Positions 2,191-56,015 of a DNA stretch of 64,000 nt are shown in pieces. Both the position numbers and the translations under genes were made by a program. Source of the DNA: Nageia nagi. Lineage: Eukaryota > Plantae > Pinophyta. The stretch covers positions 201,810,001 through 201,874,000 of the forward strand of contig JBITNC010000001.1 of NCBI GenBank assembly GCA_050084985.1, given 5' to 3'. The notes below the pieces were generated by a model. The model was not told the origin of the DNA. It ran no database searches and saw only the letters and a list, made by a program, of their open reading frames with translations. Position 1 is the first letter of the stretch, and the number at the start of each line of letters is the position of its first letter.

Positions 2191-2199
2191 CCTCACATT

Positions 2200-2551
2200 G
2201 ACCTTAATAAATCTGAAGATGACCTGTCGAGACACTGTATCCCTAGTGATGTCTCCATAAGTCTTTTCCTTTCCTCACATTCCCTTGCATTTATCCCTAT
2301 GTTTGTCCCTACATTTGTGATCTTTCTTCGCTTTCGTTCACATTTGCAATCTTTCCTCATTTATGGAAAGGATTTCCGGCATGTATTTCCCTTGTATACA
2401 GTTAACAAAATGCATCTTTGATTGTTGAGCCATCAAGACCATATTCCATGTGAGCACTTGGGGTAACTAGCCCTTTCAGGCGGAAGCAAGTAACGTTGTT
2501 TCCTCCAAGTCTTGTGCATGTTTTGGGCGAGGAAAGAAAAACATACCAACA
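2200..2551 (+). mobile_element. 3' terminus of the giant-LTR family (...GGAAAGAAAAACATACCAACA)
   Basis: Colinear with ~54570-54901 and near-identical over the last ~50 nt. Confidence 0.85.
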
Positions 2552-2719: not shown

Positions 2720-3424
2720 ATCAAATCTCCCCTTTTAACTAGGTTGTATAGTTTGAGGGACATGCCTAGGTTGCATGGTTTGGGGAAGATGCTCGTGCTA
2801 TTACAGTGAAAACATGCAACCTCCTCAAAACTCAAAAATTTTGCAAGGATGATAACACTATGCTATTTTTAACCCTTTTGAACAACAATTGGCATCAAAT
2901 CTATTAGCTTGGATCCTGATGAGGGGAGTTTGATAAGGTTCAATACTTTTGAGGACTTGCTTCCAGCATAAGCCTAAAATCATGCAACCTAAGGCAAGAG
3001 GTTGAAAACATGCGACTTCCTCAAACTCAAAAATTTTGCAAGAGGGTGAAAACATTTGACCTTCTCAAAACTCAAAAAATTTACAAGGATGATAACACCA
3101 TGCTATTTTTAACCCTTTTAAACAACAATTGGCATCAAATCTACTAGCTTGGATCCTGATGAGGGGAGTTTGACAAGGTTGCTTACTTTTGAGGACTTGC
3201 TTCCAGCATAAGCCTGAAATCATGCAACCTAAGGCAAGAGGGTGAAAACATGCGACCTTGCAAGAAACTTAGAATTTTCGAGAAAATTTAGCTCTATATT
3301 GAAGATGGGACTTCATCCTTCTAGATCTTTATTTGTCATCTTTACTGAAGATGCAATTTCTCTTCTACGAAAGTAGGGTCCTCAAATTTTGTAAAAATTA
3401 GGGGCGTGTTGTGCAGGCACAACA
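2720..3424 (-). mobile_element. 5' terminal fragment of the giant-LTR family
   Basis: Minus strand starts TGTTGTGCCTGCACAACACGCCCC...TTTGAGGACCCT, homologous to 47856, 33445 and 56015. Confidence 0.8.
2806..3260. repeat. Tandem duplication with 240-bp period
   Basis: AACAACAATTGGCATCAAATCTA at 2881 and 3121; AGCCT(A/G)AAATCATGCAACCTAAGGCAAGAG at 2971 and 3211. Confidence 0.95.
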
Positions 3425-6171: not shown

Positions 6172-6343
6172 CTGAATAATACCAAAAACAAAAACAAAAA
6201 ATTACCATTGAAATGTAAATTAATGATATATCTCCGGGTCAATTGAAAATTAGGAATTGATCTACATACTGAAAAAACCAAGACCTCAAACAAACATATG
6301 TATAAATATTAAAAAACAGCCATAGAATGAGGTTTTGTTTTAC

Positions 6344-26499: not shown

Positions 26500-28640
26500 A
26501 TGAATGAAAGTGAGGGTAATGAATCAGAAAATGAAATAGAACAAAACATGGAACAAGAATAAACATAACCTTCTGGAGAGGGGCAACAATACATCCATTT
26601 ATGAGTGCCCATCTTTGTTGTTAAAACAATATGCCAGAGGACCGTTTGACCCAAAAAAATCTTAACTTCAGTTTGTTACAAACTATGACAAGGGGAAAAA
26701 ACTTCAAGGGGGAGGGAGAAATTGGACTTGCCACTTTTGTTCCACTAATTTTTTTGGAAGTTATACCAAGGTTGTGTCACACCTTACAAATAGACAAGGG
26801 TCAAGGGTGAGAATATGCAAAAGCATAAATAGCTTCCAGTTTGTCGAAGCCTCTAGGCTTGACCAAGGGGAAAACCTTCAAGCACAAGGAAATTTAGTAT
26901 TGAGTCGACCTAGCCGAGCATCTCCTAATCCTCCTACCCATGTATCATCATCTTGCCCACAACCTTGTTCTTCTAGTTTACCGAGTTCTACATTGCCCCC
27001 TTCTAGAAAAAGAGGGAATGTGGTTGATGCATTGAATTTACAAGCAAAAGCAATGGTTGATGACTCTGTATGTAATTCTTTTTTCACATGGGTTGTCCTT
27101 CCATATTGCACACTCATTTTACTACAAGGATGTATTTGAAAAAGTGAGGGAAGCAAGGTTGTCATATGTACTTCCAACAGAGACTAGACTTCATACTACT
27201 CTTTTGGATAGGCAATATGCCAAGTGTACTTTAAGAGATGGAGGGGATGAAAGTAGCATACATGACCAATGGTTATTCTATAATGATGGATGGGTGGAAT
27301 GACATTCATCAACACCCACTCATCAATATCATTGTTACATGTTCAAAGGGTCATTTTTTTCTTCGGGCTATTGATTGCTTAGGGAAAAAGAAGGATGTAG
27401 AGTTCTAGTTTGTTCTTTTGAAGAACGCTATTGAGGAGGTTAGACCCTCCAATGTTGTGCACATAAACACTTTTAAAGTTTTAATTTTTAATTTTTAATT
27501 AAAATTTTATTTGTTTTAAATTTTAGATATTTTAGTTTTTAAAAATTTAACCTCCTATTATTTTGTTGTCTTGTAGGTCATTACAAATGCAGGCCCTATT
27601 TGTCGGCATGCAAGGAAGTTGACAGGGAGTCATTACAAACATATTTATTGGACCCCATGTTGTGTACATGCATTGAATAATGCATTGAAACATATTGGAA
27701 AGATAGCATGGGTGAATAACATGGTTGCAGAGGCTAGAGACTTGCAAATGTTTATTTGCAACCGTCACACTTCATCAGCCCACTTTCGCTGCTTCTCAAA
27801 TAAGGAGTTTATCAAACCTGTTGAGACAAGATATGCCACATATTTCCTCCTATTGAAGAGGATGTTTGAGATGGAGCGTGCATTATAAAGTATGGGAGTG
27901 ACACAAGAATGGAGGAGGTGGCCAAAATCTCAAACAAATGAAGGAAAATGACTTAGAGACAAAGTGTTAGATAATCATTGTTGGGATGACGTTAGGTAAA
28001 TGAAGTTTCGCTTTGTAGTTTTAATTTTTTATTATTGATTGTTTCAATGTTTATGTAGTATGTAGTTTTTTAACTTGCTTTCTTCAATCTTTGCAATTAC
28101 CTCGTATCTTTCATTAATCCAATCCATGTTGTCATAAAGTATGTTGATACATAATCTCCCAACTTAGAAGACATATGTGAAACTTTTGATAGCATGCTTG
28201 AGGAAATGAAAAAGATTATTTGTGCTAAAAATCTTTCATTTTATGAAGAGCACATCACACCCATTATAGTGAAGAGGTAATCATACCTATGTAACAAATG
28301 TTGATTGTTGATTGGAATTTTAATTTGGATTGTTTATTGTTCAATGCTTCACATAGTTTATGTTTTTAACTTTTTTTAATTAACTTTTTTATTTCTTGTA
28401 GGTAGGATAAGATGAACACCCCTGTTCATATGGCTTCCCATGCATTGAATCTGAAATGGTATGTACCCAGGGATGGAAAAAAGACACAATAATGATCAAG
28501 AAGTGAAAAATGGGTTCAAGAAGTTTATTAATAAGGTGTATACATCGGAAAAAAGTGTAATCATTAGATCAGAATTCATGCAATTTGTGAAACTCAAAGG
28601 GTCCTCAATTTAGCACACCAGAGTCTAGAGAGAATAGGAC
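26500..28640 (+). pseudogene. hAT transposase (BED finger, DUF659, RNase H-like core) with introns; the dimerisation tail resumes at 33446-33690
   Basis: WTCHFC...SHL, GCSIMMDGW, HIYWTPCCVHALN, ETRYAT; LVAVHSYLHL after 33446. Confidence 0.88.
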
Positions 28641-28659
28641 TTCATGCAATTTGTGAAAC

Positions 28660-30110
28660 CTCTCTTCTTTTTCTTCTTGGTCATGGTCTGCTTGAGCTTC
28701 TCTTTTGCTGCCAAGTCCCTGTTTATCTTGTTGATTTGCTTGATATCATCTATATTTCTGTATCTTTTGAACTTTCCTAGGGACTTGTGAGGGTAATCAG
28801 TTTGCCAGGTTTTCTTGTAAAATGCACCGATTACACCTTTAGGATCATAGTACTCTACCGCATATTCTATTGTGATGTCGTAATATGCCAACTCCATCTT
28901 CATCGTTTTGACTTGATGCCATGATGTGCATTCATACTCTCATATGCGGATAGGTAATTTGCATGTGGTGGCACCTTTCTTACACCAAACTTTCTCGTGT
29001 AGGTACAACAAGTGTCTACAAAGTTCCATCAAGATGAACTAATCACTTGCGTAACAAGGAAGTCTGTAAGGTAGCTCATTTGACCCGTAAACCCTGATAT
29101 ATGTGGCATCTGTTTCTTCAAGATAAAAATTTGCATGTCCTCGAAGAACTTGGATTGCCACTTGGGATATCCTGGTCATATTGACGGTCCCCTTTATCTC
29201 TACATATATACAACACTTGAATCCTTCATTCATCATTTTGAATTCATCCCACCAGTTTTCCAACATGAATCTAGGGTAACTCCGCCATACTAGTATTTAT
29301 GGGTCAAACAGGTACTTGGTATCTACTATGGCGGATCTTCTATTCTTGCCATGTAGAAGCAAGAATACCAAGTTAGAGCTCATGTAGAATCTCTTTGTTT
29401 CTACGAGTCTGGACAACTGTTGGGCTATGCAGTCACTGATCACCTTACTCCATCTGATCCCTTTGCCTCTACTAATATGATGTATAAAACCCACGAATTC
29501 CTTTCTAAATCTTTGATCATTCTCTTATCCCGTGATTCTGCACAGCATACTGATGATGGTCGAGATTGTAGGATAGATGTCTATCCTTCTTGATTGACTT
29601 AAGGCCTTTGCCTTGTAATCTTTGCACTCGTCAGCTAACCAATCTCCTATCAAGTTCCTCGGCTTGGTCAGGCTATTATAAAATCTAACAGACTCTTTCA
29701 TGGAGAATATGATGCCTTCGTTACTCCATGCAAATGCGCTCTCTATTCTGTCCATAGTGAAATCTAGTATTTTTGTGCCTTCATTGTCGAGGACTCTCTC
29801 CTTTGTGTCGCAATATCTTGCTACCTCGAGGCATAGTTCTGGGAATGGAGCGGTGAAAGGGATCAAAGAAGCTTCAATGATCCTGGATTGAGCAAGTGTA
29901 TCATTGAGCAGTTGTTCGTGTGGGATCTTGGCCATCTTCTCTAATGACTTGACGAGGTCAGTGTTTGCCCAATTTATGTCCTTGATTTGTCCAAGGCCAT
30001 CTACTAGCACAGCTATAGGGAAGAGAGCCTTCCCTCTTTTTTCCAAGGTGATCAGGCTAATCTTCATGAGCTTCTCCATCTGGAGCTCTGTTTTTCTTAT
30101 CAATGCTCAT
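28660..30110 (-). pseudogene. Decayed accessory ORF of unknown function (homologue of 50029-53490)
   Basis: IRWSKVISD, FYMSS.LV, TYIRVYGS.E.P..LP.YASD and YDPKGVIGAFY are shared with the plus-strand copy. Several stops. Confidence 0.85.
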
Positions 30111-30899
30111 GATCCAAACCTATGGAGTAAGACAAGGTGTTAGGAGTGATAATGGGTATCTCTTGGGTGATTTTGGAGCAAAAAAAGGGAGTCAAATTTT
30201 GGCCTTTTTAGAAGCTAAGTGTGGATTTTTGAGAATTCTGAAGTTCATCAAAAGTGGGAAACAAGTACATGGGATGTTGGCAAATAAATCTAGGTGGCTT
30301 GTGGCCAAGTCTCGGAGAAAATTTTCTAGTTTTTGGGGTCCAAATTAACTCGCTGTTTTTATAGCCCATGTATTCATTTTTTTGACAGGTTTTTGCTGCT
30401 TCGAAGCTTGGAAAGATAGGGATGTAAAATGGCTTTTCAAGTTTCATTCAGGGGAAGTGAATGATGAAGGCTACTCTCCTATGTGGGATCTATCACTTTG
30501 GTATTCACTTCGAAGTTTGGATCACTCGAAATTTTGGAGTTTTTTAGCCTTGAAAAAGTGTATTTTTGTGTTTTTTCACTTTTTTTCCAAAAAGCTTGAA
30601 AATGGTGAAAATGGCCAAAAGATAGGGGGGTCCGAAATTTTGAAATTTTTTAAAAAGTGGATTTGACCTAATGGGTGGATAGAGGATGGAATTTTAAGAT
30701 CCTTGAAAAATTTTAACAAGGTTTTGCCTTATTTTGGACCTTGTGAGCAAATTTGAAGTTTTTGAGCAACATTGTGAGGTTTTGTGAGGATTTTGCTCAA
30801 AATGGGTGCATGGAGACTCAAGGAGAGTGTTTGTGGAGCAAATGAGAGGCTTAGGAGGGTATTTATAGGTTTTTTTGTGCCTTTTGCATGCTCCTTAGT

Positions 30900-32560
30900 G
30901 GGTTTTTGACCTAAAAAGTGCTCTAGGGGTGCATTTTGCATAGTTTACAAGTTTTTGGAGCCTTTAAACACTCCATAGGATTGCAAACCTGCGCCTGATT
31001 TTTTGAGGCACTTCTTTGGGTCAAAATGGAAAGTTTTAAAGTTTAAATGTGATTCAAATCACTTCCTTCACCCATTTATGTGCCTAAAATCGAATTTTGA
31101 TGACTTTTGGGGCTTTCTCCTTGCATCCAGGAGCCATTTTTCACTTTTTTGGGTTCTCCAATGGTTTGCAAACCTACACCAGACTTTTTGGGGCATTTCT
31201 ACTGCTCAAAATCGAAAATTTGCTGACCTAAACATGCTTAGAATGCCCTTTTCTATGCAACCATGTGAAGAATTTTGATTTTTTTGCAAAATTTTCACTC
31301 CTCTTCATGCGAGGTGCTGATTTTCACTTCATTGGTTTTAGAAAATTTGGCAAACCTGCACCTAGCATATTGGGCCTCTTCTCTTGCTCAAATTTGAAAA
31401 TTTGCAAGTTTAAATGTGTTTATTTTCATGTTTTCCATGCATTTGACACCTTAGGTTCGAATTTCGAGATAAAAATTTGAACTTTCTTCACCTTAGACAC
31501 TAGATTTCATCTCATCGGAATTCCAATGGCATGAAAACCAGCGCCTGCCTTTTAGGAGCCTTTTCATCGCATGAAAACCAGCGCCTTCCTTTTAGGAGCC
31601 TTTTCATCACCCAAAATCAAAATTTTGCAAGTTTAAATGTGCTAGAAATGGGGTTTTCCATGCAATTGACACCTTGGGATCAAATTTTGATGCATTTTTC
31701 ACTTATCCCTCCTATTTAGGTGCCATTTTTCATCCCTATGGAATTAGAAACATTTGCAAACCTGCATCTAGGCTTTGGAGGGTCAACACTTGCTCAAAAT
31801 CAAATTTTTCATGACCTAAATGTGCTAGAAATCACATTTCATATCCAATGAGCCCTTCAAACTTGAGTTTTGACCAACTTTTATCAACTTTTTTTTATTT
31901 TAGGTGCCATTTTTAATCCCATTGGATTTCCATACCTCTCAAAAATTGTGCCTGGCCTCTAGGGTGTCCCAATGTGTTCAAAATTGAAAAATTAGAGACC
32001 TAAATGTGCTTACCATCATGTTTTTTTGTGGTCCCAAGCACTTAAAACTTGATTTTTGGTCAAAAAACATTCTATCTTGTCAATCTAGGTGCCATTTTTC
32101 ACTCCAAAGGATTTGGAAACATCTATAAACTTGCGCCAAGCATTCTGGGGGTCTTTACTTGCTCAAAATCAAAAATTTCGAGACCTAATGTGGCTTAGAA
32201 CCATTTTTTCCACTCATTCATGCATTTGGATTTCATTTTTGATGCATTTTCACTTTTTCTTTACTATCTAGGCACCAAAATGCATCTCTATGGATTTCCC
32301 ATAGGCTTGAAAAATTGCTCCTAGCCTTATAGTGCCTCAAACTTGGTCAAAATCGAAAATTTCGAGTCTTAACTGTGATAGAATTCACCTTATCTCTTTG
32401 AATACACTCTTAGACTCGAATTCCAATACCATTTGCATTTATCTATAAGAAACTTGCACCATTTTTCACTCCAATGGATTTTCAATACCTTGGGAAAACG
32501 TGCCTGGGGCTAAGGCTACTCAAACTTGCATTTTCAAACCATTCCGAAATCAATATGTAC
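30900..32560. repeat. About 9 degenerate tandem units of ~185 bp inside the giant LTR
   Basis: GCAAACCTGCGCC / TGCTCAAAATCGAAAATTT / GACCTAAATGTGCT / TAGGTGCCATTTT recur at ~30981, 31166, 31349, 31533, 31754, 31940, 32124, 32308 and 32493. There is an extra 40-bp duplication at 31529-31608. Confidence 0.85.
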
Positions 32561-34159
32561 ATTTCCAACCACTCCCGGCATTTTCGAGTTCAAACTCGAT
32601 CAAAACACCCTTTTTGACATCTTCGAACTCAAACTCTGCATTTTCGATGATTTTCGAGCTCAAACGGTGCAAAAATGACCATTTTCGCATTTCTGGGCTC
32701 AAAGCATTCAATTCCACCCATTTCTAGCATTTCCAGTCCCTTAGTGTAAAAAATGACCTTTTCCGACATTTTTGAGCATTTCTAACCATTTTGGGCTCAA
32801 CTAACCACCTTCGGTCAGTTCCAAGCTTTCCGGACTCAAATCGTGCAAAATGCACCTTTTTTACCATACTAACCATTTTTGGGCCCAAAAGTGACCAAAA
32901 TGCGCTTCTACCTTACTTGCCCTTTTCCAACTTTTCGAGTTCAACTATGACAAAAACGTCCATTTTTGTCATCCTTGTCATTTTCAAGGCACCTGGACTC
33001 TAAGTTGACAAAAAATGCTAATTTCTATCATCCCGATACCTTAGCACCTAAATTCTACAAAACACGCCTTTTTTGTTGCGCTAGGCACCTGTGAGCTCAA
33101 TCTCTGCAAAAACGCGTCCTTCTATCAAATCTGCCAATCTTACACTTATATGCTAAGAAAACGCGTCTTTTTCCCGCTCTGTTGGCTACTTGGTGAAAAA
33201 CTCCTTTCCTGGATGCTATCGTGATCCAAAACTACGTCTTGCTTGATGTTGCTTGAAACCGAACCGTGCACTAAACTGATTTGGTGCCTCTGTGGCTACC
33301 TGTGTGCACTGCTTCGCCACCCAACCACTCTGATTCTTGTCTCTGGCAGTTGTCTAGTCATCTCAAGGCAATGTTGTCCATTGCCTTCAAAAAACGTAGG
33401 GTCCCCAAAATGCTGCATCTTGGGGTGTGTTGTGCAGGCACAATAGCTTATCCCTAAGAGAATAGAGAGCTAGTAGCAGTGCATAGCTATCTTCACCTTA
33501 GAGAGAGTTAAGCTTGACTACAAGGCTAGTCCAATTGCATGATGGGATATTGATCCTATGGAGGCAACTAATCTTGAGGTTGATGATGATGTGCAAGGGT
33601 TGGTAGGATTGTCGTTGGAAGGTGTCCACTTGGATGATGAGGGCAGCTCATCAGATAGTCTTCCTGATGAAGAGGATGACATTGATTACAACCAGGATAT
33701 ATTAGGAGTAAATGAGCCCTTATAGCCATAGTTTGATATTTGTGATTTTGGCATTTTGCAACCTATTACTATGATTTCAATACTACTATATTTATCATTT
33801 AACTTTTGAGTATTTTTTATTTGAGATTTCAGATCTATCCTAATGGACAAGACTGATTCAGATTTAATAATATTATGGTGTTATGATCATTAATTATGGG
33901 TCATTTTGATACTATGTTTCATACTTGATTTCTAATTTAGGTTCCAAGTGTTTTATATATGATTGAATTGATAATAATAATGAATTAGATATAATAATAT
34001 TTAAAAAATCTGAAAATTCCGATATTTTTTACTAGTATTATACTAGCCGCTCCCCCTATCATTTTCGAGGCGCTCCCTAAAAACGACCTCAGCCATTCCC
34101 TTTCATGGGAACGTGCTCCCACCTCTCCCGACACACAATGGAACCTTGCCTAATACTAA

Positions 34160-35699: not shown

Positions 35700-36946
35700 G
35701 GGAATTTGGAATACAATAAATTACTCATCACAAATATCAGCCAATTAATGAGCAATAAGCATCAAATTATGCTTCTAGGCATGCCATGAACTGATCTAGG
35801 ACATCAAACATGTAATAAAATATGGCAAAATTCCCAACATTGCACCTAGAGCCAGAAAACACCTCAAAAGCTCAACATGGCACGAGGGCATCCACAAATC
35901 GTGCAAAATACATCACACCAAGAGATGCAAGATATCATCAAACGCACATCACAATGAGACAAGAAATGGAGATCAAGTGCGCCACGGCTCAATTAATGAA
36001 GAAATGATGGGAACAATACAATATCAAGCCCTCAAGGGCTCAACGTTGGCCTCCAAGGAGCCAACTAGGGCACATCAATGTGCAAATATGATCAACGATG
36101 CATATATGTTGTAGAACAACCACACTATAGCAGATTTGTGGATGTCTTTCCTCACAGGCTAACTCCCAGCGAAAAGAACAAGTGTGATTCTAGAATGCCA
36201 CCAGATGGGTTCAAAGGTGAAGAATGCTATGGACACCTCAAGGTAAGGCAACCTCACAGCACAAGCATTCACCTCAAGCGCTAGTCAAAAGGTGTTCCAA
36301 GCCTCCTGGACTCTCCCTAGTCTACAGGCCCAAGGGTGCTTAACGCCGCCAAGTTTTTGATAACTCCAAAGAGAAGAAAGGGTTTCAATATAATAATCAA
36401 CCTATCTTTGCAATGATGTTCCAACGTCTTTTATAACATTCCCTGGATCTAGATCTCACCTAGAAATCATCACCCAGTCTCTCCAATCCAACGTTAGCCT
36501 CCTAGAGGCTCCAAAATGCCCAACGTGGGTGTCTAGGAGTCATGTATGCCAACGTGGGGCCTTGGTGTCATGCATGAGTGTCTTGGTGTCATCATGGGTG
36601 AACATGGGGGTCTAGGAGTCTCCCCAAGGCTAGCCCAAGTGTATAATTTCTCCCAAGTCCAACATTGGGGCTATAAGTGATTATCCATGCTTATGTGCTA
36701 TCCTAGGTGCTATACAAGACTTGGGATTCGACAATAAATATTTAGGATCTCCAAGTGTACAAACAACAATAAAATAACTCATCCTAAGCTTGGAAGGAAA
36801 ATATCCCTCTTTAGGGCTCACAATAAGGGTCCAATGAATTGTTATTTTTCTATCCCAAGTAACTAATAATGCAAAAACAAAATATTTACAAAGAGAACAC
36901 CTAGGATCCCAAATTTACTTAATTTTGTTCAAAAGGGGATGTTACA
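35700..36946 (-). mobile_element. LTR of the ~1.2-kb chromovirus-like family
   Basis: Colinear with 14916-15850 and 17656-17807. Ends GGGGATGTTACA; left boundary uncertain. Confidence 0.78.
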
Positions 36947-37194
36947 TTTGTTTATAGGTTCCAATGACCACTTCTTAATTTGAATGATGTAAGGCTTTCA
37001 AAAACTACCACCGGTAAATGGAAAACAAAGCCTATGACTATTTTCTCTTACTTGTTTTGTAAGACTATCCGGAAACATGCAACTATTAGGAAGATTGGAC
37101 TGCATTAGGTCTGATTTTTTATCAACTACTGCATTTTGAGTGTTTACATGAATATTATGAGCATATATCTTCCTAAATTGGGTCAGGAGCAACT

Positions 37195-37440
37195 TGTAAT
37201 ATTCCCAAATATTCTCAATGTACAAATTAGCCAAGCAAATGCCATATCAATATTATATAATGCTCCTAGGCATGCCACGAACTACACTAGGGCATCAAAC
37301 ATGCAAAATAACAAGCCACAAAGCCAAACGATGCACCTCTCTAGCTAGATTCAACCCTTATACCCAAACATCACACTTGGAGGCTCATACACCATGCAAA
37401 ACAAATCCAACAATGCCAACGATCCACCATACAAGCATAT
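37195..37440 (-). mobile_element. LTR 3'-end fragment
   Basis: TGTAATATTCCCAAATATTC matches the terminus at 14916. Confidence 0.7.
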
Positions 37441-40185
37441 TGTGATGTCCCCCTTGCATTATTATCAGTAATTGTGAAATCCAACGGATTCCCCTTTGTA
37501 ATATATTTTATTATTGCATCGTACTTTCAAGTTGTAGCTTGGGATAGAAGACTTAATGGGCCCATGGACCCCACTGTGAGCCCCAAGTGGGTCGTCTCCC
37601 TCCCAAGCATAGATTAGGTGTTTTATTATAATTGGAGATCCCGATCTTGATTGTGGGAATCCCAAGGTTTGTTTTGCACTTAAGTGGATGGATAAGCACC
37701 TGTATACATGTGCCAACCTTGGGAAGACTCTTAGACCCCCCCGTTGGCCCATTATGACACCTAGATCCCATGCATGGCTCCTAGACCCACATTGGGCATA
37801 CGTGGCACTCCTAGACCCCCACGTTAGCATTAATGGCACTTCAAGCCCCCACATTGGCATGCATGACCCCTAGGCACCCACGTTGGGCATACTGCGCACC
37901 TAAGAGGCTAACGTTGGGATTAAGAAGTCGGGTGATGACTCCTAGGTGAGATCCAGAAAAAGTTGAGTGTATAAAGAGATATTAGAGCCTCATTGTTGGA
38001 TATACATGATTATACTATTATCTCTTGATATCGTCATGTGGACAAAAGTCTTAGCAACGTTAAGCAATCCCCTAGGTGCATCATCTAAGAGGGCTATCAG
38101 GCTGAGCGATCCTGATTGTCTACGGCATTGGTGTAGCACCCTTGCCCATCCGATGGTATTCCGAGGTTGAGCTTCTACCATTCAGTTGGTCGCCAAGATC
38201 AGAGGAGGGCACCTTTGCTAGAGAGGATTTAGGTTCTAAGGGAGTGAGGTTGTCCCATGGTTCTACTTGTCCATCTAGCATTGATGATACACGATTCGCC
38301 CTAGTTGGCTCCTTGGAGGCCAACATCCAACTCTGGGAGCTATGTATTTTATTGTTGTGACATTCATATCTTCTATACAGTCATTGGGCACTTGGATCTT
38401 ACTTTTTTGTTGTGTATACTTGTCTATTGGCATCGTTTGATTACTTTGGCATGTATGTGTTTGAATGAGCCAGACATTGGCATTGTGGGATTGTGTTGTT
38501 TGATATATGCTAGCTGTAGCCAGATGTTGGCATATTTGCATTATTGGGGTTTGATTTCGATGCCCTAGACTAGACATTAGGGTTTATTGGATTGAATTTG
38601 CTTAATTGCACTTGACTTTGTGTTTGGATCCTTACAACCATGAGGAGTATGACGGAGGTAGTACAAAATCAATTGGCCAAAATAGATGCTTGGTTTGGGA
38701 GGAAGGAAGTCCCAAGAAGACACGTGAGCCCTCCACATTCTATTCTGGAAGAGAAGGAAGAACCAAGGGAGAAGGAAAAAATGGAAAAAGAGCCTAGTTT
38801 AAGGAGATCGCATAGCTTGAGGGATAGAGGATCCACTCATCACTAGTCCATGAGTCACCAAGAGCATATGTTTGTGAGGTCCCATTCTCTTAGGGCACCG
38901 CAGGGGACTAACCCTCTCCTAGGAAGGTTCCTGGAAGAAGACGTTGTGAAGATAGGAGAGCATCCCATCATTCTCAAACCGTCCAAGCCCATGTTCGCCA
39001 TGAAATCTGCAAATGAGGTAAAAAATTGGGTCCCGAATCCTCTTGAGTTGAATTGGATTTTTAGAGAATATTCTATGCTAGATTCAAGATTGAGGAAGGA
39101 TATGAATTTCAATAGCTATTTGGATATCTTAGGATTGAAGGGAAGTAGTTCTCATGGCATCCACTCTCAAGGCAATTCATGGGGTGAAAAGAGGGAACTA
39201 CAACAAAAAATTAACAAAATATAGGTTCTGATGTATGATGGAAAGATGACAAGTAGGGCTTGGCTCCATCAACTTCAGACATACTTCACCCTGAGTCCAA
39301 ACATGGTGGAAGAAGATGTAATCCATTTTGCATCATTGCATTTTGAGGGAGATGCTCTCAAATGGTGGCAGCATAGGGCAATTAGCCAAGATTATTCTCA
39401 TATCTCCTCTTTTGATGAATTTGCTCGGAGGTTAGTAAAATAGTTTGCCAGGAAGAAGGAGAATGATTATTTCAAAGAGCTTACATACTTGAGGCAGCAA
39501 GGTATGGTAAATGATTTCATTTCAGACTTTCAGAAAATTGCAATCATGATCCACAACATTTCAGAGGAGAGATTGACCTTCATCTTTCTAGAGGGGTTGA
39601 TGGAACCCTTGTAAGGAATGGTGAAGGTATCAAGGCCAAAAACCCTTAATGATTAACAAGCTTAGGGATCATGTTAGTCTACGGCATTGGTGTAGCACCC
39701 TTGCCCATCTGATGGTATTCCGAGGTTGCACTTCTACCTTCAATGGTTAGCTAGGATTTGAGGAGGGCTCCTTCAGTGGAGAGGATTCAGTTTCTGAGGG
39801 AGCAAGACCTTCCCATCTGTCCGTCCAACTTGAGGATATTTGTTGTGCCCTAGTTGGCTCCTTTGAGGCCAACATCAACCCTATTGGGTTTGGTATTGTA
39901 TTGTTGCTATATTTATATCATTCATACAACCATTAGGCGATTCAATCTCCATTTTACCTTGTATACTTGTCCATGTTTGCATCGTTGAATTATTATTGTC
40001 CATGTATGCTTGTGTAAGCCATATGTTGGCATTGTGAGGGTTTCAATATTGACATATGCTAGTTGAGGCCAGACCTTGGCATTGTTGTGTTGTGCATGCT
40101 TAATTTGAATGCCCTAGAACAAATGTTGGAGTTTAATTGCATTGTTTGAGTTGTTTGCACTTGATATTGTAATTGGAGCTTTACA
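37441..40185 (+). mobile_element. Deleted or chimeric gypsy element: LTR 37441-38636, gag 38640-39655, partial LTR ~39660-40185
   Basis: gag motifs MYDGKMTSRAWLHQLQTYF and ASLHFEGDALKWW. PBS and pol are missing, the two LTRs are clearly diverged, and there is no TSD. Confidence 0.8.
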
Positions 40186-43100
40186 AAACTTGACAATGTC
40201 TTGGAATCTTTTGTAGGAAAACTACTTCACTATTCATTCCAAAGGATGCCATGGAAGAACCCTAGTTCTAACGAATTCTCAAGATAGTTTCTTTAACCTC
40301 ATGGTCGAATAATAGTTAGAATCCCTTTTGTGAGGAAGTTCAATTTCTTCTTGCTTTTGTCAAAGAGAAATTTCAAATGCTGCCCTCAAAGATTCCCCTC
40401 TTTGCTGCATTTGTTTTCGTAGAACCGTAGATTTTTGTAATGCCACTTGAGTTAGTTCATATTTCCTTTTCCATTCTAAGCTTTCTTCTTTTGTCTCTAT
40501 CAACAATTCACAAACATCATCATGGTTTTCTTCTAATGCTTCATACTTCCTTTGTATACTGGCAAACTTATCCAAATTCTTTCTTGCATCCTCATTACGT
40601 TTTTTACTTTTTCTGTTATTTGCAATTTGTCTTAAAGTGAGTGGCTTTATGTTCTCAATTCATTTTTGATGGTTTTCAGTTTAGTGTCCAGTTCAGATAC
40701 TCTAGAGAGTGCAACTTGATCCCTCCTCTATGCCTCCACGAAGTTTGACTTGATGTTTGCAAGCTCAATACGAAGGGTGTTTACTTGTTCTTGTTCCTAT
40801 AGTGATGGTTGTTGTGTGTCTTTCCCTCGGTCCAGTGGAATAGTTCTTTCTGCATCTCAAACCATCTTCAATAGATCCTTCCTTCCTTTAAAATCCAAAT
40901 ATGTCTTAAAGTCTACCATCTTTTTGTATTTTTCTGATATCTTATTGTACTCTATATTCTTTCTTTCTTCCAGCCTATTTTTGATCCCGTAAATAGGAAA
41001 CATCCTTCAGACGGTACTATTTAGCATACCCACAAGCTCAGATCGACACAACGTCATCTTGCCTCTCGGACAGCTACTAGATAGTCACAGCTTGTACGAT
41101 AGTTGTACATCACTAGCTTCTTTCCCTCTAGAGGTGATCCCTCGGTCTTAGATGCTAGGAAAGACTCGCGAGCCTTGCTTAGCCCTTCTAGTCTAGGACA
41201 CTATGCCTAGAGTGAACAAATCTACATTTAATGATTGAGGATGTTGGTATTGTTTCACTCGATGTAGTGTAGCGTAGCTTTATCGCTTTTTGTGTTTACT
41301 TTGTAAGTTTCTGGGGTTTCTCGTCCTAGCATTTCTACGTTTAGTTGGATTGTACTTTTCAAGTCCCATTGACCTATTTTGATCACCCGAGGACATTAAT
41401 AATATTTCTATATGTAGCTTGTCTAATTCTGCTCCTTTGGATCAACAACTTCTTTCACCATAGCTATTAGAGTATCTATCTTATGTTCATTCATCTGGCT
41501 AATTTTAAAATTCTCTTTCTACATTTTGCCAATTTTATATTTGAATTTTCCAGATCCTTATTCCTCCATCTCAAAAATAATTTTCACTCTTGCCAACATG
41601 AATTGCCACCAAAAATAAATTTCAAAGTTGAAATAAAACTACTAAAACCTGGAATAATGCATAATTAACTCCAAACCTTAGCAAGTATGCCAAGATTCCA
41701 TACGTCCAAGCTCAATTGAGAGAATTTTTGCAGTTTCAAGGCGAATTAAGCTTCTTCAATACCCGTCTCACTTCCAGCTATCAAATCTTAGCAATGCTTG
41801 CAAAAATGTCCCAACATCTCCATTTTAGCCTTCATGGTGCAGATACCACTATGAAAATGTGTCAAATTTAGCAGTTTGAATCCTCTTGTGGCTCAAGGAC
41901 CTCCTTCCAGTGACTAACTGCAAAAATTCTAAGCAATTTGAATCATAATGACTCAATGACCTTACAGAAACTCTCAAAATCAAGATTCCATGGTGAAAAT
42001 CTAACAATACCTGTAGTTGGATCTCACTATAATGCAAACACTCATCAAAATTGGTCTTAGAATGCCAACAACCTCCTCAATGCAGCTCCAGAATGCATAA
42101 TAGTCTCCAAAAATGCCAATGTCTACCCCATAATGGATTCAAAATGCATATCGATCATTCAAAACACCCTTAGAATGCCACTATCCTCCTTACTAAGCCT
42201 CCAAAACGCTGAACAGATCTCAATTCTTGTCTCAATATACCAACAATAGTCTCAAAGTGACAGAATGACCTCAGATCTAGGCCTCAAGTCATACGTTCCT
42301 CCTTGAAGCCTCAAAACTCAAAATTGTGGTCACTATAGGTCCAACGAATTGCCAGAAGGGTGAGCTCTATCCTCTAGACCTCTAACGTAGCACTCCTAGT
42401 ATTGAGATCCAATAGACTTGATGCCAGAATATCAATGTTCGTCTTCCAGGTATAGAATACTCATATCTCTACAATTTTTCAAAACTATCACCATGAACTC
42501 AGGTCAATATCGTTGTAAAACTTGTTCCAAATCTTCTAGCAGGACAACAAGATCATTTTAGCAAATACTCCTTACCCGAAAGAAAAGGGTAAGATCTCCT
42601 CAACAAGTGTTACCAATGTGATCTGTGATATCTCCTTAAACCTTCTTACAACCAGAATGGCAAGAACTCCTCTTCAGCTCAACTTGAAAAATACTTTGTG
42701 TGCAAAACCTTTGATTCCCGCAGAATGGTAAAATCAAGGCTCTGATACCATTGTGATGATCCCAAACCGGTGGATCATGCTCAAACGTGCACTAGGAGAG
42801 GGACGTTCGGTTTGGAGCTTCGAATCTAGCCAATGCAACTCAAAAATACCCAAACACTCCAACATCTAGCTAATTTATGATAGAAATGCAAATCAAACCA
42901 CAAAATATCTCCAAATACCCAACATAGCACTTCAGGAAGTAAACAAATATTTAACTACGAAATTACTCTTCTAGATCCAATGTCCAAGCACAAAGAGACA
43001 AAATACCAAAATGTAGACAGAAAATGTAATTGTATTGATAGAACAAGAGAGTAACGCAATTACAATGTTTTTGTGCCTAAGGAGCTTACACCAAAGTTGC

Positions 43101-46904: not shown

Positions 46905-49847
46905 CTGCAGCAATATTTATTGGCATGCATTCAATAAAGGAATAAAATCCTAATATTATTGCATCACATTTAATTGCAAGCATGTGATACTTCTTTCTCA
47001 AGGTGATATCAAATGAAAATTAAAGATAAATTTAGGTATCTGTGTACTCAGACAAACAGGTCTGAAGAAATATCCATAGCAACAAAGAAGAGATTTTAAA
47101 GTGTGGATAATAGGTCAATGTAACAACAAAGAACATCAAGTTTACAATAGGCAGGGAAAAATGGTGGAGGCCAAAGACTAGCTCATAACAAACATATAAA
47201 CTAGAAAGGGAGATGGAATAAACATCATGAGAAACCATAGACATATGATCCATGTCCACATACAAATATATAGAAGCTGGTAGAGGCTAACATAAAAAAC
47301 GGAAGACAGCCTGAGTACCCCTATCATGCATTTCAAGTTATAGGTAGTACTGGTGACCCAACAGCATATCATCCTCAATACTAAGAAGCCATTGACAGGT
47401 GTGATAACAGCCCTTAAGATGGGATGCTAAAGGGCCCAAATGGGTGACCCATAAGGGAAGGGATGTACTCCCCCGAAAAATCTAACATAACATCCAACGT
47501 TGATGAGTCCATGTAGGAAGACACTAACATGTGTCTACCCTTAAGATGTGGTGTATAGGATGGAGGACCTAGAAGATTTCTGAAATTAAGTGCAGCAAAA
47601 CCAAGGAAATAGATAGATGTATATACCTTAATTATCAAAACCTATACGCAGATGGCAATAAAAACTTTGTGATGCTCCAAAATATTCCTTATTCCAAATA
47701 ATAGCAAAATGCGCAACAAACCATGCAATGGTCAAGAAACAATGCCAAAACACAGAAATATTGCCAAAATATCCAACACACAAGCAAATATGAGAGCAAT
47801 GGTGCAACACTTCAATATGTAACAATGAATGATCAAGATACAAGGCAATAGGGCCTGTTGTGCGTGCACATCACCCCCAAAAAATTTTGCATTTTTGAGG
47901 ACCCTCATTACACGAAACATCAAGGTATAAAAGATTTTTCTAAGTCAAATGCATGCCTTCTAGGCCAAACAAGGATAAATGTGGTAAATCTGCATCTTCA
48001 AGTTCAAACAAGTCAGAAATTTGCCATTTTGTCTAGGGCACATGTTTTAGGGGACATGCTTTTGCATGTACCGTAATCGGTGCACCCCCTTCATATTGCA
48101 TAGTTCTTGCATTTCCGGGTTCAAATTACATCTTTCATGTGCATTTCTTACTTGGTCATTATGTAAAATTGCATCCCCCTCCATTGTATTCCATTTTCGA
48201 GGGTCATTTTGAAGGAAATCAGCATATTTTTGGCCTGAGCGCATGGTTTCAAGGACATGCTTTTGCATGTACCAAAATCGATGTGCTCTAGCGGATGAGG
48301 TAGTTTTGACACAACGTATTTTTGAAGGAAAATTGCAAAATGGGCAGAGCGCATGGTTTCAGGGACATGCTTTTGCATGTACCAAAATCGGTGTGCCCTC
48401 TTTCAAGCATGAAAATTTGACTAAGTGTCCAAGTTTTGGACGTCTACCATAAGGGAGACGGATGTGTTCACATGCGTTGGGCCTCCACTCACACCAATCA
48501 CTACATGACACCTGTCCATTTGAGAAAAGTCTATAAAAGGAAGCTCAACTTCAAGATTTAGTTTATCTAGCTAATTTTGGAGCATTGTGCTAAGTCTGGT
48601 TCAGAGAAGCACGTCCCCCAAAGGATGCACCCTATTCTGCATGGTAATTTTGGAGGTAATTTTCACTAAATTATAATTTGTTGCATTGAGGTGTGTGTCA
48701 TGAACCAATGCGAATGATTTTGGAGAAACGTGAAAGCACTCTACCAAATTAGTGCGCCGGCTTCTAGACATCTTGACCCAAAGGCATATTTTTTACTAGT
48801 ATAGAATTTTTCATAAAGCGCCCAAGCGCATGTTTTCTATTACATGCTTTTTCACTCCTCCGAAAGGGAGCCCCCAAAATTCTGGCACATTTTTCAGTTT
48901 AAGTCTTTTTGAGGTGCCTACTTCCTAGGCGCAAGGATTTTGGGACATGCTTTTGCACCCTTCCAAAAGGGTGCAACCAAACAACAAGGGTTTTGAGGAT
49001 GATGAAATTGACTAAGTCCTTTTTTTCATGTACTGAATTTGGTTGGTGCATGTATTCCGGGACATGCTTTTGCGCGTACTCTAGAATGTGCGCCCACCAT
49101 CCAAGCTCCGTTATTTGACCTCATAGTCAACCAATAAGGTGGTGACATGTGGCAAAGTTGAAGGTTATATATAGGAAGTTACCCCTTGTACTATTTACCA
49201 CTTCATTCCATTTTACATCGAGGCTACCAGTCGCACCATTTTCAAGACATGCTCAAGGAATTATCCAAATTTGTGCGCCCGGGAGAGATAAGGGTTTGAG
49301 AAGCCGCCCGAACTACCAAGAGCCATTTTTTTTAAGGGGTGAGTTGGATCTCAGAGTCCGTTTTCTAAAATTCACTTCACATTTTTCTGCACAAGTTTAC
49401 CCTAAATTGACCTATGTGCATGTTTTTCCATTACTGCTTAAGGACTCATCCAAAACAGTGCACTCAGGTCCAGATCAAGAAAACTGGCTAAGTATCCATG
49501 ACTATCAGGTGCATTTCATTCTCCTTTCATTTGTGCATGAAAATTTGAGACGCATACTTTGCGAGACATGAAAACGCACGTGCCCAAATCCATGCACCCA
49601 TCAAGAAGTGGTGATCCGACCTTTCAATATGGAACATTGTTGCCCTGGATTTGACTAAGTGATGTGTTCTCATCTTAGGTGTCTAGTCGCATGTTTTTCA
49701 GGCAGTGAAAAAGCACCCTTCTGAAAAGGTGTGCCCTAGGGATTGTGAGCTAAAATTGACTATGTATTGAGGAAATTAGAAGTCAAACGGCTAAGAAGAC
49801 AAGTGGCATACATGCAATGTGCCATTCATAAAACCTCCATACGACCT

Positions 49848-50020
49848 CTATAAAGAACAATCCCAGTTCATTTTTGCAGGACGTTTCACAGCCTAGACCT
49901 GCACGTCTGGTCATTTTCCTACATTTTCCAAAACACATTCAATTTGGTGCTTGACCCTTTTTAGGGACATTCCCAACCAGAATTCAGGCTTTTCTCTATT
50001 ATTTTCTGCATACTTTTCAG
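49848..50020 (+). promoter_or_regulatory. Candidate TATA box (CTATAAAG) and 5'-UTR 3' splice site for the accessory ORF
   Basis: The minus copy has the same arrangement: TATAAAAA 30356-30363 and an acceptor 9 nt before ATG 30110. Confidence 0.55.
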
Positions 50021-50028
50021 ATTTTAAG

Positions 50029-53000
50029 ATGACTTCTAGGGTAAGGCCTACCCCATCCAAGACCAAAAAAGCTTTAGAAACAACTTTTTGAAAGGCATGT
50101 CCCAGACGACCAGATGGAAAGGGTTATGAGGGAAAGTCAGATAGAATTCCAAGAAAGAGAGAAACCAAAGCTCCTTGAAGCCAAATTTAAGAGGAGATTC
50201 ATTTTTGTTGGAGATACAGAGTGGGGAAATGTTGATCCCATCCAAACTATAGGCTCCACTGCCTCCATCAGTAAGGAGAACGTATTGGATGAAGTCGTCC
50301 ATTCTTGTGGACTGTTCAATGCCACCATGATGCCTTTTGTTATTTCATTTTCTGACTTATGTTACGAAGTTTCTAAACGATGCAATTATGGCAAGAGACT
50401 TCTCTTGGACACCGAAGGGAATGTGAACGTGGATTTCTCTCCGAAGGGGATTGAAGCCACCTTTGGCGAGAGAAGATATGGAGATGATTATACCTTGGCT
50501 CAATCAGAAGAATTCCATGACACCATTGTCCGACCTGGAGATTATATTAGAAGATGCTTATGTGATGATTACCAGGGCATCCAGGGCCAAAGATTAATTA
50601 GTGCCCATAGGGAGGAGTTCCTTTCCACAATCGCTAAGTTGATCACTTTGTTTTCCAAAGTCCACAAGTCAAGAAAATGACTCCAAATACAGGAAACAGT
50701 TCATTGGATTTATTGCCATGATCAGTTCAAGAAGAGCTATCCGATGGAGCAAGGTAATCAGTGATGCCTTGTGCCACCAGTTGGCCTACTTTGGTTCTTC
50801 CAGAAGTTTCTACATGAACTCTTACTTAGTGTACATGTTGTTGCATAGCAAGTTCAAGTCGAAGGAGCATGCAGATGAAAGATATCTAGGCAAGAAGGGC
50901 ACCCCGATGTGGCAGATTTATCCAAAATGGTGGTATCATAATAAATTTCGGCACTACTATGAGAGGAACGACCAATGGGAGTATGTCATTAACAAAGAGA
51001 TCAAAAGAGAATCAATAGTCAAGAGGATCTTTGATGCAACTATTCAAGCCATCAGCATACATGCAGACTTCTACCTGCAGTATACTGATCACACATACAT
51101 CAGGGTCTATGGCTCTAAAGAACAGCCCTTACTCCTTCCCAGATATGCCAGTGATAGGATGATTCTCATGGAGTTTGCCAGACACTTATTATTTTTGAAG
51201 GAGTGACTATGGAGAAAGAAGGACACAACCATTAACTTGCCCATTTCCATTGCAAGTTATGTTTGTCAGACTTGGGTTGAGGCCTATAACATGAAGAAGG
51301 AGCTGCAGCAATACGTCTTCTTCAAGGAGGCAACAGCTAGGAATTATGATCAAAGAGGCGTTATCGCCCGGTTCTACAGCATTTCATTCTAGAAACCTGT
51401 TATTTACAAGCATAAATCCTTGGGGAATGTGGAGAAGTGTAGGAATGTGCGAGACAAAGGGTAAATAGACAGATACTCTTTTGAGTAGAAACAAGGCCCC
51501 TCTTAGGTAGAAAAGACGACCTAGAGACCTAGAACTGTGAAAGAAAAATCCAAAGAGGTCCCATTAAGGATCAAAACCCCTCCTTCTACAAATGTTGCAC
51601 CTCCACAAGTCAAAACATCCTTGCTTCCCATTGGGAAAGGACAAGGAACGTCAAGAGAATGTGTCTCAACAGATCCTAGTAAACACAACGTGGTGACTTA
51701 CGCGGAAAAGAAAAGCCAATAGGAGGTGGTTGATCTTAGAGACATTGGTTACCATGATTTTTCTTTGAGCATGCTGGAGAAAGCTTGTGCCAATGATTCC
51801 CCTGTCAAAGAAGCTCCATCAAGACCCACTCATCCTCCTAGATGTAGAGAGAAAGTTCCCCCATTGCAACCAAGTTCCAGTTCTTCCAAACACTCTACTT
51901 CCTCCTTTAATGAAGAAAGTGATGAAGAACCCGATCGTACTGAAGAAGGCTAAGAAGAAGATATAGAGAGCTGGGAAAATGATGAAGAAAGTTGCGGTGA
52001 AGAGGAGGAAGAAGAAGAAGATGATGATGTTGACGATATTGATGTTGATGAAGAATATCTCGGTTAAGAGAATGTAGCTATAGGTGCTTTTGCACCTAAT
52101 GAAACGGAGATTAAAACTCTCTCAAATAATGATGATGACTTGTTCATAGACATTGAAACTTATGATGAAGAAGTCCATATTGTTGGAGTAAGATGTGCCA
52201 AGGAAGTTGGTTCTTCCAAACCCTCTCCTATTGAACATAAAAGGAGGCTCTCATCTTCCCAAAAGCCCTCTGCGAAGAGGACTAGCCATGAGAGATCCCC
52301 TCAACCACGCAGGAATGTTCTATCATTAGGTGGTGGTGGTGGTGGAGACGAAGAAGATTAAGGAGATACCGAGGAACAGAAGAAGAAGAGGAAGCAGGAT
52401 GAGCACCAAGGTAAGGAAGTTGTCCTTGTTCAAACTACTCCAATGAAGGAAGTCAAGAAGATCAATATAGGCCGAGCGTTGGTACAGAGGCTTGCTCCAA
52501 AGCCAGCAACCGAACATCAAGACCTAAGGTCTAAGGATGAGGAAGAGGAGCTCTCCGATGGTGAGAAGGTCAGAAGGGTAAATACTTTTGTCTCTACATC
52601 AAGAAAGGAGATTTCCGTCAGCCACTATTACTTCAAGGAAAAATGTCCACAAAGACACAAGGACTACATGATAGACACATTCAAGATGCCCGTAAAGCTA
52701 GGTCTGATAGCCAAAAAGCACATAGTCACTCAAAATGTTGTTGTCATGGAACAAGAAGGCTATGAGGCTAAGAAAGAGGTGAGAAGACTCAAGAAGGAGC
52801 TCACGGTCAACAAGAAAATCATTAAGGAGTTTCAGATTGAGTACCACCCCTATAGAACTGAAGAAACAAGCCTCGATCCATGTAGCATGGGAGTTGATGA
52901 AGGACCTTTTGAATAAAGAGATGATGGAGACCATTGAGAAGTTATCTTCTCAAGTCTATAGCCTCCTTAAGAAAGGTGTTGAAATCAGAGAACTAAAATC

Positions 53001-53490
53001 CCAAATGACTGCCCTCCTCGAGAAGCTGGATGGTCATCTTGCCACTGTCACCCATCTGCAACAGATTTTTGCTAACAAACCTGAAAAGTTAGTCTACTGC
53101 CACAAGTTCATGTATCAGCAAGACTGGCTTAAGCATGCACTAGGGAAGTGTAACATTGTTTTAAAAGTCAGAATCCCTTTGAGAAAGAAAGTAGAGGAAC
53201 AAATGAGCTAGTATGTATACTAGCTAAAGTTCCAAGGGGAAGATAACAGTGTGCGAAGGAAAGAAGCAATCTTGGCAAAGGCACAAAATTTGATCCAAGC
53301 GCATTTTAAGGTCAAGGATCTCAATCTACTAAAGGCAGGGCAGCCCATTCATCATGAGAGGCAGATGGTCATCTGGAAATTTCATATGCAAGCTACGTCC
53401 AAGCAGATTGGAAACTACTTCAAACAGAATGGCAGCATCGTGGGCATGATTTCCAAAGGAGTAAGAAAGACCGTGTTGTTCTTGGAATAG
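50029..53490 (+). pseudogene. Decayed ~1,150-codon accessory ORF: conserved N-terminal domain, acidic tract, basic patch, C-terminal coiled-coil-like region
   Basis: Consecutive ORF fragments 50114-53490. ATG at 50029 follows a polypyrimidine/CAG acceptor. Homologous to 28660-30110. Confidence 0.85.
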
Positions 53491-55889
53491 ACCACTAAGT
53501 CGTACAATCTCACCAACAAGGAATCAAACTCCGCCAGTACCGGATTAGATCTGGCCTAGATTTGATCCACTCGTAGATTCTCTTTGCGATCATCTTTTCA
53601 ATGTTACATGCATATTGTTGGAGGTTGTTGTATTTAGACTTCATTTACTTGATTTGACTCACCAGATCAAATCTATCAGACTCATTTACGGCTCTAACTA
53701 GTGCAAGGATGAGGTTTTGCTCCCACCAATTAGATGTCAAACATTTATTGCATATCTGATTTTCTTTTTGCATGGGTTAGAGGTAGATTAGACATTTTGT
53801 GGCTATGGCATTTATATTTTGTCAATTTTTAAATGCCACTTGCATAGTTTTTTATCAGATATCAGATTTTGCATTGGTATGTGTGTTGCATGTGAGCACA
53901 CCATATCAAATCTAATGCCTTTAGGGCAACAATTCTAGTGACGTATTTATACCCCACTTGGGCCATTTAGAAGAGGATTTTTCCATATAGGTGTTTTTTG
54001 CATGTGAAAGATTTCAGCATTCCATTGCATAAAAATTTGATGCATAAGGGATTCTTTGCACATCATGGTTGCATATTGTTACATCTCTGGTGCATTTTGA
54101 ATATCATATTGAGGGTACTGCAATCAAGAAAGGAATGTTTCTGTTTATATTATTGAATCTCATTGACAGTTGATTTCTTTCTGGAATAGTTTTGTAAACT
54201 AAATGTCGTGAAGATTATCATTTATGGGATCATGCATCTTGTCCTGTAAGCCTCTCTTGCTGGTTTGGGTACTTTTTACTGGTTAAGTGTATTCTCTTTG
54301 AAAACTGCGATTTTTAAGGAAAGATGATTGAATATCTTTGGACATAGTTTAAATTGTTCATTGCATGATTTGCATGTAATTGGATGTATTTTGTGATGTA
54401 TAGCTTATCTCTATGTCATTCAGTTAGAATTTATGTATTCACATGTTTGTCTTTTCCCTTCATTCAATTTCCATTGAGTCTCCCACCATAGACACTACAA
54501 CTTCCCGCTCTCGTCTGGCAGTAACTTGAGCTTTTGCTATTTGTTGCTCGGCTTGATCAGTGAATACATTTTCTTAAAGAACTCGGAGATGACCTGCCAA
54601 GACACTGCATCGTTGGTGATACCTTCATAAGTCCATTATTCATATTCCTATGCATTTACCCTGCAATTGTGATCTTTCTTCGCGTTCGTTCACATTTGCA
54701 ATCTTTCCTCTTTGAGGAAAAGAATTCTGACAATGAATTTCCCTTGTTTACGATTAACAACATGCATCTTTTTCCATTGTGCCCTAGTCCATATTCCATG
54801 TGAGCGCTTGCGGTAACCAATCCTTTCAAGCGGAAACAAGTAACGATGTTTTCTCCAAGTCTTGTGCATGTTTTGGGTGAGGAAAGAAAAACATACCAAC
54901 AGGGCCCAAAGGGCTGATGTCTGGCTCAAAGGACCAATTTTGAAGCTCAACGAACTCAATGTGCACCAAAAAGGTTGACATCATAGTGCAAGGGCCTCTA
55001 ACTCCTGGATCTGACTGACGTCTGGCTCAAAGGACCAAATCTGAAGCTCAACGAACTCAATGTGCACCAAAAAGGTTGATGTCATAATGCAAGGGCCTCT
55101 AACTCCTAGATCTGAGATGAAGAACAAAAACAATACTCCCTTAAACAATGGATGCTCCACCAAAGGGCTATCCCCATGCCTGGATCCCGAAGGAGAAGTG
55201 ATGCCACTAGATAAGACTAAGGGTTTCCATCTTTAGCCAAGATCTAGTGAGGTTTGCATTCCACTAAACCCTTCCTTTGCTAGGTTTTTGTCCAACAAGA
55301 GGCCCAAGAGATGATTGTGTGCCACACTCCAAAGATAGAAGATGTCAAATATGCCAAAGATGCCTTCACAATGATGTGCTCCTCCTTTATATAGCTTGAT
55401 GCCTCATCCTAGATCTAGATCTCACATTGTTGTTTCAGATATGATGAACCTTAAGAGAGACATTATGACAAACCTTAAACGTAAACTAGAAACTTTGCCA
55501 CATGAGACTAAATTGGTATGTAAGTTTTGTGACAAAGAAGACATGCTAGATTTAGGAGATGATGACAGGTATGAATCAGATTTTTATCCATTTATAACAT
55601 TGATAAAGAGGGCTCATTTGAGACTTTTTGGGAACCCTCTTGGAACCATTTAGAGTCATAGATCAGCCATGATATGACTACTATGAGGTATGATATCGAT
55701 TCTGATTTTTATGACAGCTCTTTGAGATATTATGGAAAATATATATTGATTGCATTGATAAATGGTAAGGATGAAATTGAGTATTGGTTGAATTTAGCCA
55801 ATTGGTTTGGTACGCATTGGGATACATTATGTAAAGGGACAGATACAATAGATTGAAAACTTGATGGGGTTGCATCAGAAAGTATTTTT

Positions 55890-56015
55890 GTAATTCCAAT
55901 AGTCACCTTTCAAGGCTGTCGCCACAAGTCAATCTCAAGGCAATGCACCTCATTGTCTTTGCAAAAACAGGATCCACAAAATCTTGTATTTTGGGTGTGT
56001 TGTGCAGACACAACA
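55890..56015 (-). mobile_element. Short 5' terminal fragment of the giant-LTR family
   Basis: TGTTGTGTCTGCACAACACACCCAAAATACAAG on minus. Confidence 0.7.

Follow-up and report, generated by a model that had tools for sequence, protein, structure and literature searches.

The locus studied here raises the question whether a plant retrotransposon can carry a gene of its own inside its long terminal repeat (LTR). We analysed 64,000 nucleotides of Nageia nagi (assembly GCA_050084985.1, contig JBITNC010000001.1, positions 201,810,001 to 201,874,000 of the forward strand; hereafter the window, numbered from its first letter), which is repeat-rich eukaryotic DNA with ∼39% GC. A sequence-only reading of the window had described two diverged copies of one repeat, each with an open reading frame (ORF) behind a common terminus, and had suggested that the gene is an old, selected, spliced part of the LTR of an abundant family. 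We observed a unit of 7 kb with TG...CA termini, flanked by a 5-bp target-site duplication (TSD), an ORF inside it that is kept by purifying selection, and motif pairs with a 40-nt spacing in both subfamilies of the unit. The unit is very probably an LTR and likely belongs to a Ty3/gypsy retrotransposon (OTA, possibly TatII).

The complete unit, copy A, covers 7,046 bp (47856..54901, plus strand), runs from TGTTG to CAACA according to its termini and alignment, and is likely a solo LTR. It is bordered by GGGCC on the left (47851..47855, +) and on the right (54902..54906, +), and its flanks (47741-47855 and 54904-55015) can be aligned over their whole length with 62745-62961, a paralogue of the invaded repeat without an interruption. 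Two features expected of a plant LTR, TG...CA ends and a TSD of 4-6 bp, were thus found in copy A. Beside its right TSD the host repeat contains a 101-bp tandem duplication (54914-55115).

Copy B lies on the minus strand, extends from 33445 down to ∼28660 and has lost its 3' part. As had been read from the sequence, it opens with the terminus of copy A: position 33445 (-) matches 47856 (+), except that the TG start has decayed to TA, and this terminus (33416..33445, -) is common to five others. For comparison we used contigs of sequencing runs (X1, X4, X5 and X7 among them), which cover repeats and ORF alike, look genomic and are in no case recorded as RNA. In three of four runs a sharp contig break with mixed flanks was found at 33443 (16, 4 and 6 contigs). 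The insertion site is a decayed hAT transposase gene (26666-28100 and 33446-33760, +; DUF659 match at 27577-27885), which copy B splits. The additional termini of the sequence-only reading were recovered as well. They comprise a 5' terminus at 3424 (2740..3424, -) with 240-bp tandem units, which represents a third subfamily, a B-like 5' fragment of ∼90 bp at 56015 (55927..56015, -), and a 3' terminus at 2551 (2195..2551, +; 78% identity to 54566-54901), where 29 of 30 nt are as in copy A's end at 54901. The family is indeed abundant, with 2,349 contigs of run X1 matching copy B and 1,384 matching copy A. The viral contigs searched held no related loci and no match to the terminus, and the alignment was nowhere conserved enough to support a locus scan.

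The ORF of copy A (50029..53500, +) has ∼1,150 codons, interrupted by frameshifts at three places and by more than a dozen stops, and consists of a VANC/PMD-like domain, an acidic disordered middle and a heptad-rich C-terminal part. For copy B, codons 1-487 of ∼1,150 remain (28655..30110, -), with one frameshift near the start and four in-frame stops; they are 83% identical to protein P0004. The protein blocks said to be common to both copies are real, with 43% identity over 277 core residues and 26% over 184 N-terminal residues. The DNA of A and B aligns over 761 nt only (59%), apart from a weak match of 61 nt where the ORF begins. A relative on a metagenome contig, L001, is 83% identical to B and, starting at the corresponding ATG, has 758 codons without a stop. 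One cluster member reads beyond the L001 stop, to 838, and the C-terminal frames of L001 and a further locus, L002, match copy A 52855-53205 at 21-28% identity; we therefore assign a full ORF of ∼1,150 codons to both subfamilies. Open frames were also present in distant relatives of 1,010 and 1,018 residues, and a search covering 1,769-5,000 residues yielded no longer homologues. HMMER detected 134 related clusters at 50% identity. In a tree of those proteins that cover the core (34 of 155), A and B fell into separate supported subclades (100/99 and 97/96), each of which holds relatives from other data sets. Among ten relatives looked up, the Taxus chinensis hypothetical protein KAH9296670.1 was the sole one with a species name.

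The proposal of an old and selected gene held up in the substitution rates and in these separate subclades. Between B and L001 (476 codons) the proportions of changed synonymous and nonsynonymous sites were 0.371 (pS) and 0.072 (pN), and the ratio of nonsynonymous to synonymous rates (dN/dS) was 0.15, far from 1. Between A and L001 (448 codons) synonymous sites were near saturation, with identities of 0.59, 0.64 and 0.38 at the three codon positions. Both comparisons are of natural copies and include change after insertion, and so understate selection. The C-terminal dN/dS was mixed across frames (0.33-0.94) as broken frames were aligned, and this value was not used.

If the unit is an LTR, a primer-binding site (PBS) should follow its 3' end. 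Past 54901 one X7 contig reads TAAGACCATTC-TGGCACTAGAAGGAGGG, with a PBS-like motif 11 nt beyond the end, and one X1 contig equals this continuation for the first 16 nt save one. Four X5 contigs yielded a mixed line starting TAAGAC, while two X4 contigs and another X7 contig ran into unrelated sequence. The TGG word of the motif is presumably a match to the 3' end of plant tRNA-Asn. A search of the literature turned up no mention of the PBS word itself. Primers of the tRNA-Asn type are listed for 12% of Athila, 15% of TatII and 4% of Retand elements (PMC6317226, Additional file 5). The putative primer site lies downstream of the ORF, which would place the ORF inside the LTR. In agreement with the sequence-only reading, no PBS-like motif occurs between terminus and ORF; one match with three mismatches elsewhere is at chance level. 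The claim that the gene is part of the LTR is thus supported by the ends and TSD of copy A and by the PBS-like motif in other contigs. Within the 3' part of copy A (53500-54901) we found no sense TATA box or AATAAA, and a promoter for genomic RNA was not located there. In antisense orientation this non-coding part contains TATAAATA (53943-53956, -) and AATAAA (53749).

Of all features of the repeats the inverted motif pairs, which the earlier description lacked, are the most informative; they have a fixed spacing of 40 nt. In copy B an array of degenerate ∼184-bp units of the type TAGGCGC-N40-GCGCCTA (30950..32510, -) has left cores at 32503, 32136, 31951 and 31361 and more decayed units at 32323 and 31770. 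In L001 all eight successive units (182-192 bp) keep TAGGCGC (one TAGGTGC), 40 nt and GCGCCTA; the array of copy B is the L001 array with CpG decay. Copy A has no array alignable to that of B. In its units (48030..49750, +) inverted cores of the type GCGC/GTGC/GCAC are separated by 40 nt, at 48038, 48239, 48349, 48885, 49046 and 49416, and the spacer sequence differs from B. The most frequent spacer was 40 nt in each of A, B and L001 (6, 4 and 8 cases), and shuffled sequences attained these counts in 0, 10 and 0 of 300 cases, respectively. The ORF regions contained no pair with this spacer. Spacers were 62-68% similar within and 33-38% between subfamilies (27% when shuffled). Unit length varies in A (110-201 bp), whereas the spacer stays constant. 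The units within an array are duplicates and hence not independent; the independent fact is that one spacing is kept by two subfamilies with saturated synonymous sites. In the third subfamily (2740-3424, -) there are GTCGC/GTTGC-ATG words resembling the left half-sites of copy A, some with a GCAAC partner ∼40 nt on.

Upstream of the ATG both copies have the pyrimidine tract and YAG that had been noted, with the AG at 50019-50020 in copy A (8 nt ahead of the ATG at 50029) and at 30121-30120 in copy B (9 nt ahead of the ATG at 30110). Such a layout is rare by chance; it was found at only 36 of the 3,179 ATGs of the window, and at four together with a CTRAY branch word. The putative CTAAC branch word, pyrimidine tract and acceptor of copy B (30120..30143, -) are conserved in L001 and L002. 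Splicing onto this acceptor we infer from the sequence only. No joint fell on the acceptor of either copy among those listed (15 of 35 for copy B and 15 of 69 for copy A), a negative that carries no weight because the contigs look genomic. The TATA box placed ∼180-250 nt upstream in both copies stood for copy A, where a TATA-like box at 49849 lies 180 nt ahead of the ATG (putative promoter and acceptor region 49849..50028, +). For copy B the candidate at 30363 was rejected as a private mutation: L001, L002 and almost the entire contig depth lack it (in X1, 519 of 521 have A>T at 30361). Subfamily B instead has a conserved TATA-like TATAAATA at 30860..30867 (-), 757 nt upstream of the ATG and present in B, L001 and a third locus, L003. 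B and L001 agree at 87% of the positions of the leader that would follow it (30111..30859, -), above the synonymous sites (63%), and this leader contains 6-7 upstream ATGs. It likely holds an intron, which would partly remove these ATGs. Parts of L002 (227-1160 and 1861-2540) and L003 (12-900 and 910-1660) are rearranged B-subfamily copies, in which the C-terminal part of the ORF sits before or opposite the promoter region.

For the protein itself, the Pfam candidates proposed earlier (PMD, Transposase_28 and Transposase_32) gave no match by sequence, and a link to PMD/VANC emerged from structure: the predicted N-terminal fold modestly resembles VANC21 (PDB 9LNK) over 240 residues. On this model the N-terminal domain is probably a PMD/VANC homologue, while judged by sequence the protein is not a member of VANC or PF10536. 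PF10536 had no Pfam match at the gathering score in frames of the window or read-through proteins, and none at E≤0.1 for 104 relatives among the families listed (25 of 30). DUF1985 (PF09331) gave no Pfam match for the ORF proteins and only an Atlas lead of 0.85; the named Atlas clusters gave no usable match to P0004. Foldseek against PDB and viral structures returned no match at E≤0.001, and a search of PDB by sequence returned a single match at E 1.2. A homodimer prediction for residues 1-480, computed without an alignment, scored 0.00 and gave no answer.

The best explanation in our view, held tentatively, is that the LTR gene encodes a PMD/VANC-like protein that binds the upstream motif pairs and counters silencing of the element. 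Copies A and B would be decayed representatives of one retrotransposon, each from an old subfamily of its own, and the ∼7-kb LTR of that retrotransposon likely carries an accessory gene. Transcription would start at the TATA box following the array, and splicing would join the transcript to the acceptor ahead of the ATG; this we hold fairly likely. The protein, as an oligomer, might then bind the half-site pairs of the same LTR and keep the LTR active; this step is the more speculative one. Location in the LTR would give two gene copies per full element and one per solo LTR.

Several observations limit this explanation. The PBS-like continuation rests on two single contigs with an 11-nt gap, the 3' end is more widely shared than the rest of the unit, and the match to VANC21 is modest. 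A purine tract was absent before all six 5' termini in the window, which would be expected if these termini belong to solo or 5' LTRs, and no gag-pol was seen with the unit in the related loci examined (3.6-5.7 kb). The last two points would also suit a 7-kb unit that is a whole non-autonomous element, either a VANDAL-like DNA element lacking terminal inverted repeats (TIRs) with only a VANC-like gene or a retroelement derivative moving as a unit; VANC occurs in TIR-less Mutator-like elements, and the single complete copy observed carries a TSD of its own at its borders. We regard this as unlikely, as Mutator TSDs are ∼9 bp, no transposase frame was found in the unit by frame and Pfam scan, and contigs from separate studies pass its 3' end into one PBS-like sequence. 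TG...CA ends with a 5-bp TSD are moreover typical of plant LTR elements, 93.4% of which have 5-bp TSDs (PMC6317226).

More plausible, though still doubtful, is an LTR-borne accessory ORF with another role, such as integration targeting, nuclear import or RNA packaging, with pairs that are used by a host factor, position nucleosomes (period ∼183 bp) or give structure to RNA. The modest structural match leaves room for it, the function of PMD-type extra ORFs is stated as unknown (PMC4408406, PMC7264820), and the ∼183-bp period of subfamily B is near a nucleosome repeat length. However, A units vary from 110 to 201 bp and yet keep 40 nt, a constancy more in line with a distance set by a protein than with nucleosome spacing, and the sole structural match is to a transposon protein known to bind motifs in its own element's tandem repeats. 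That the ORF was captured as a fragment, or is a nested insertion, and has no function for the element might be argued from the broken state of both window copies, but it is highly improbable: the dN/dS of 0.15 already contradicts it, and the same ORF position and start in two saturated subfamilies and the 134 related clusters speak against it as well.

Genes overlapping the U3 region are known from retroviruses (mouse mammary tumour virus sag, human immunodeficiency virus nef and foamy virus bel). Like the gene proposed here they are carried by the LTR and copied to both ends, but the proteins are unrelated and the LTRs much shorter. The plant extra ORFs described so far sit in the internal region (PMC7264820, PMC4408406, PMC6317226). 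Those of Tat/Ogre elements (PMD PF10536 plus coiled coil; PMC4408406, PMC6317226) are similar in being selected accessory ORFs of OTA-type elements with a predicted related fold, a heptad-rich C-terminal part and long LTRs with tandem repeats. They lie antisense before the 3' LTR (gymnosperm TatIII, most Ogre) or sense after the 5' LTR (some Ogre), whereas the present ORF is between the ends of a TSD-bounded unit, upstream of a PBS-like site, and without a PF10536 match; the unit has 7 kb compared to LTRs of up to about 5 kb in PMC6317226. TatII shares the gymnosperm host and a 5/4-bp TSD, and its tRNA-Asp/Asn PBS would agree with the candidate motif described above (REXdb; PMC6317226, Additional file 5). 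A 5' sense extra ORF was reported in 23% and a 3' sense one in 26% of 27 TatII elements, near-equal rates that are expected of an ORF in both LTRs. It may be that these ORFs were counted and their position in the LTR went unremarked, although the parts of PMC6317226 used here state no LTR location or domain for them.

VANC is likewise element-encoded; it binds short motifs, multiplied in tandem repeats of the element that encodes it, and it removes methylation (PMC5735166). The candidate motif is also tandemly amplified in non-coding parts, a likeness of pattern only. VANC differs in its 9-base motif word, compared to inverted CpG-containing half-sites at fixed spacing, and in belonging to Mutator-like VANDAL DNA transposons, and VANC is reported as dicot-specific (PMC13547354); the present unit has no DUF1985 match, no transposase, and TG...CA ends with a 5-bp TSD. 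A literature search, with most subscription papers and Repbase outside its scope, revealed no gene inside a gymnosperm LTR and no such motif layout, nor did the parts consulted of PMC13468544, PMC13477047, PMC10508981, PMC11728184 and PMC1560396 mention such a gene. The element table and sequences of PMC6317226, or Repbase, may already contain such elements. We would class the gene as a variant of retrotransposon extra ORFs that is new in its LTR position, with a VANC-like mode of action as the hypothesis.

The largest plant retrotransposons often carry extra ORFs, for which no function has been established (PMC7264820, PMC4408406). A gene located in the LTR is unusual for plant elements, and solo-LTR formation, the host's usual disarming route, would leave it in place. 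Since one LTR brings together a candidate protein and its precisely defined candidate target, the anti-silencing idea is directly testable. We consider it possible, with considerable doubt, that conifer Ty3/gypsy elements hold a VANC-like anti-silencing system, gene and cognate array, wholly in the LTR. If so, each solo LTR would be a self-contained regulator module outlasting the loss of gag-pol, the PMD-type extra ORFs in plant retrotransposons, so far unexplained, would gain a function, and VANC-like systems would extend from dicot DNA transposons to gymnosperm retroelements. A protein that opens methylated CpG-rich arrays would bear on the success of retrotransposons in huge, heavily methylated conifer genomes. 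Speculatively, an ORF shifting with the LTR boundary offers a route between the known 3' and 5' internal positions.

The remainder of the window, part of which may be introns of a host gene, contains a second decayed hAT element (58400-61000, -) with a DUF659 match (E 3.6e-45) and a weak BED finger. A frame at 5686-6201 (-) without a Pfam match contains QIRVHLQHLGHPIANDALY, which we take to resemble the C-terminal motif of RluA-type pseudouridine synthases. Another abundant family consists of several ∼1-kb LTRs with 30-bp tandem units of the CCAACGTGGGG type, located at 7900-9113, 13300-14200, 15200-17600, 19390-20600 and 35900-40200.
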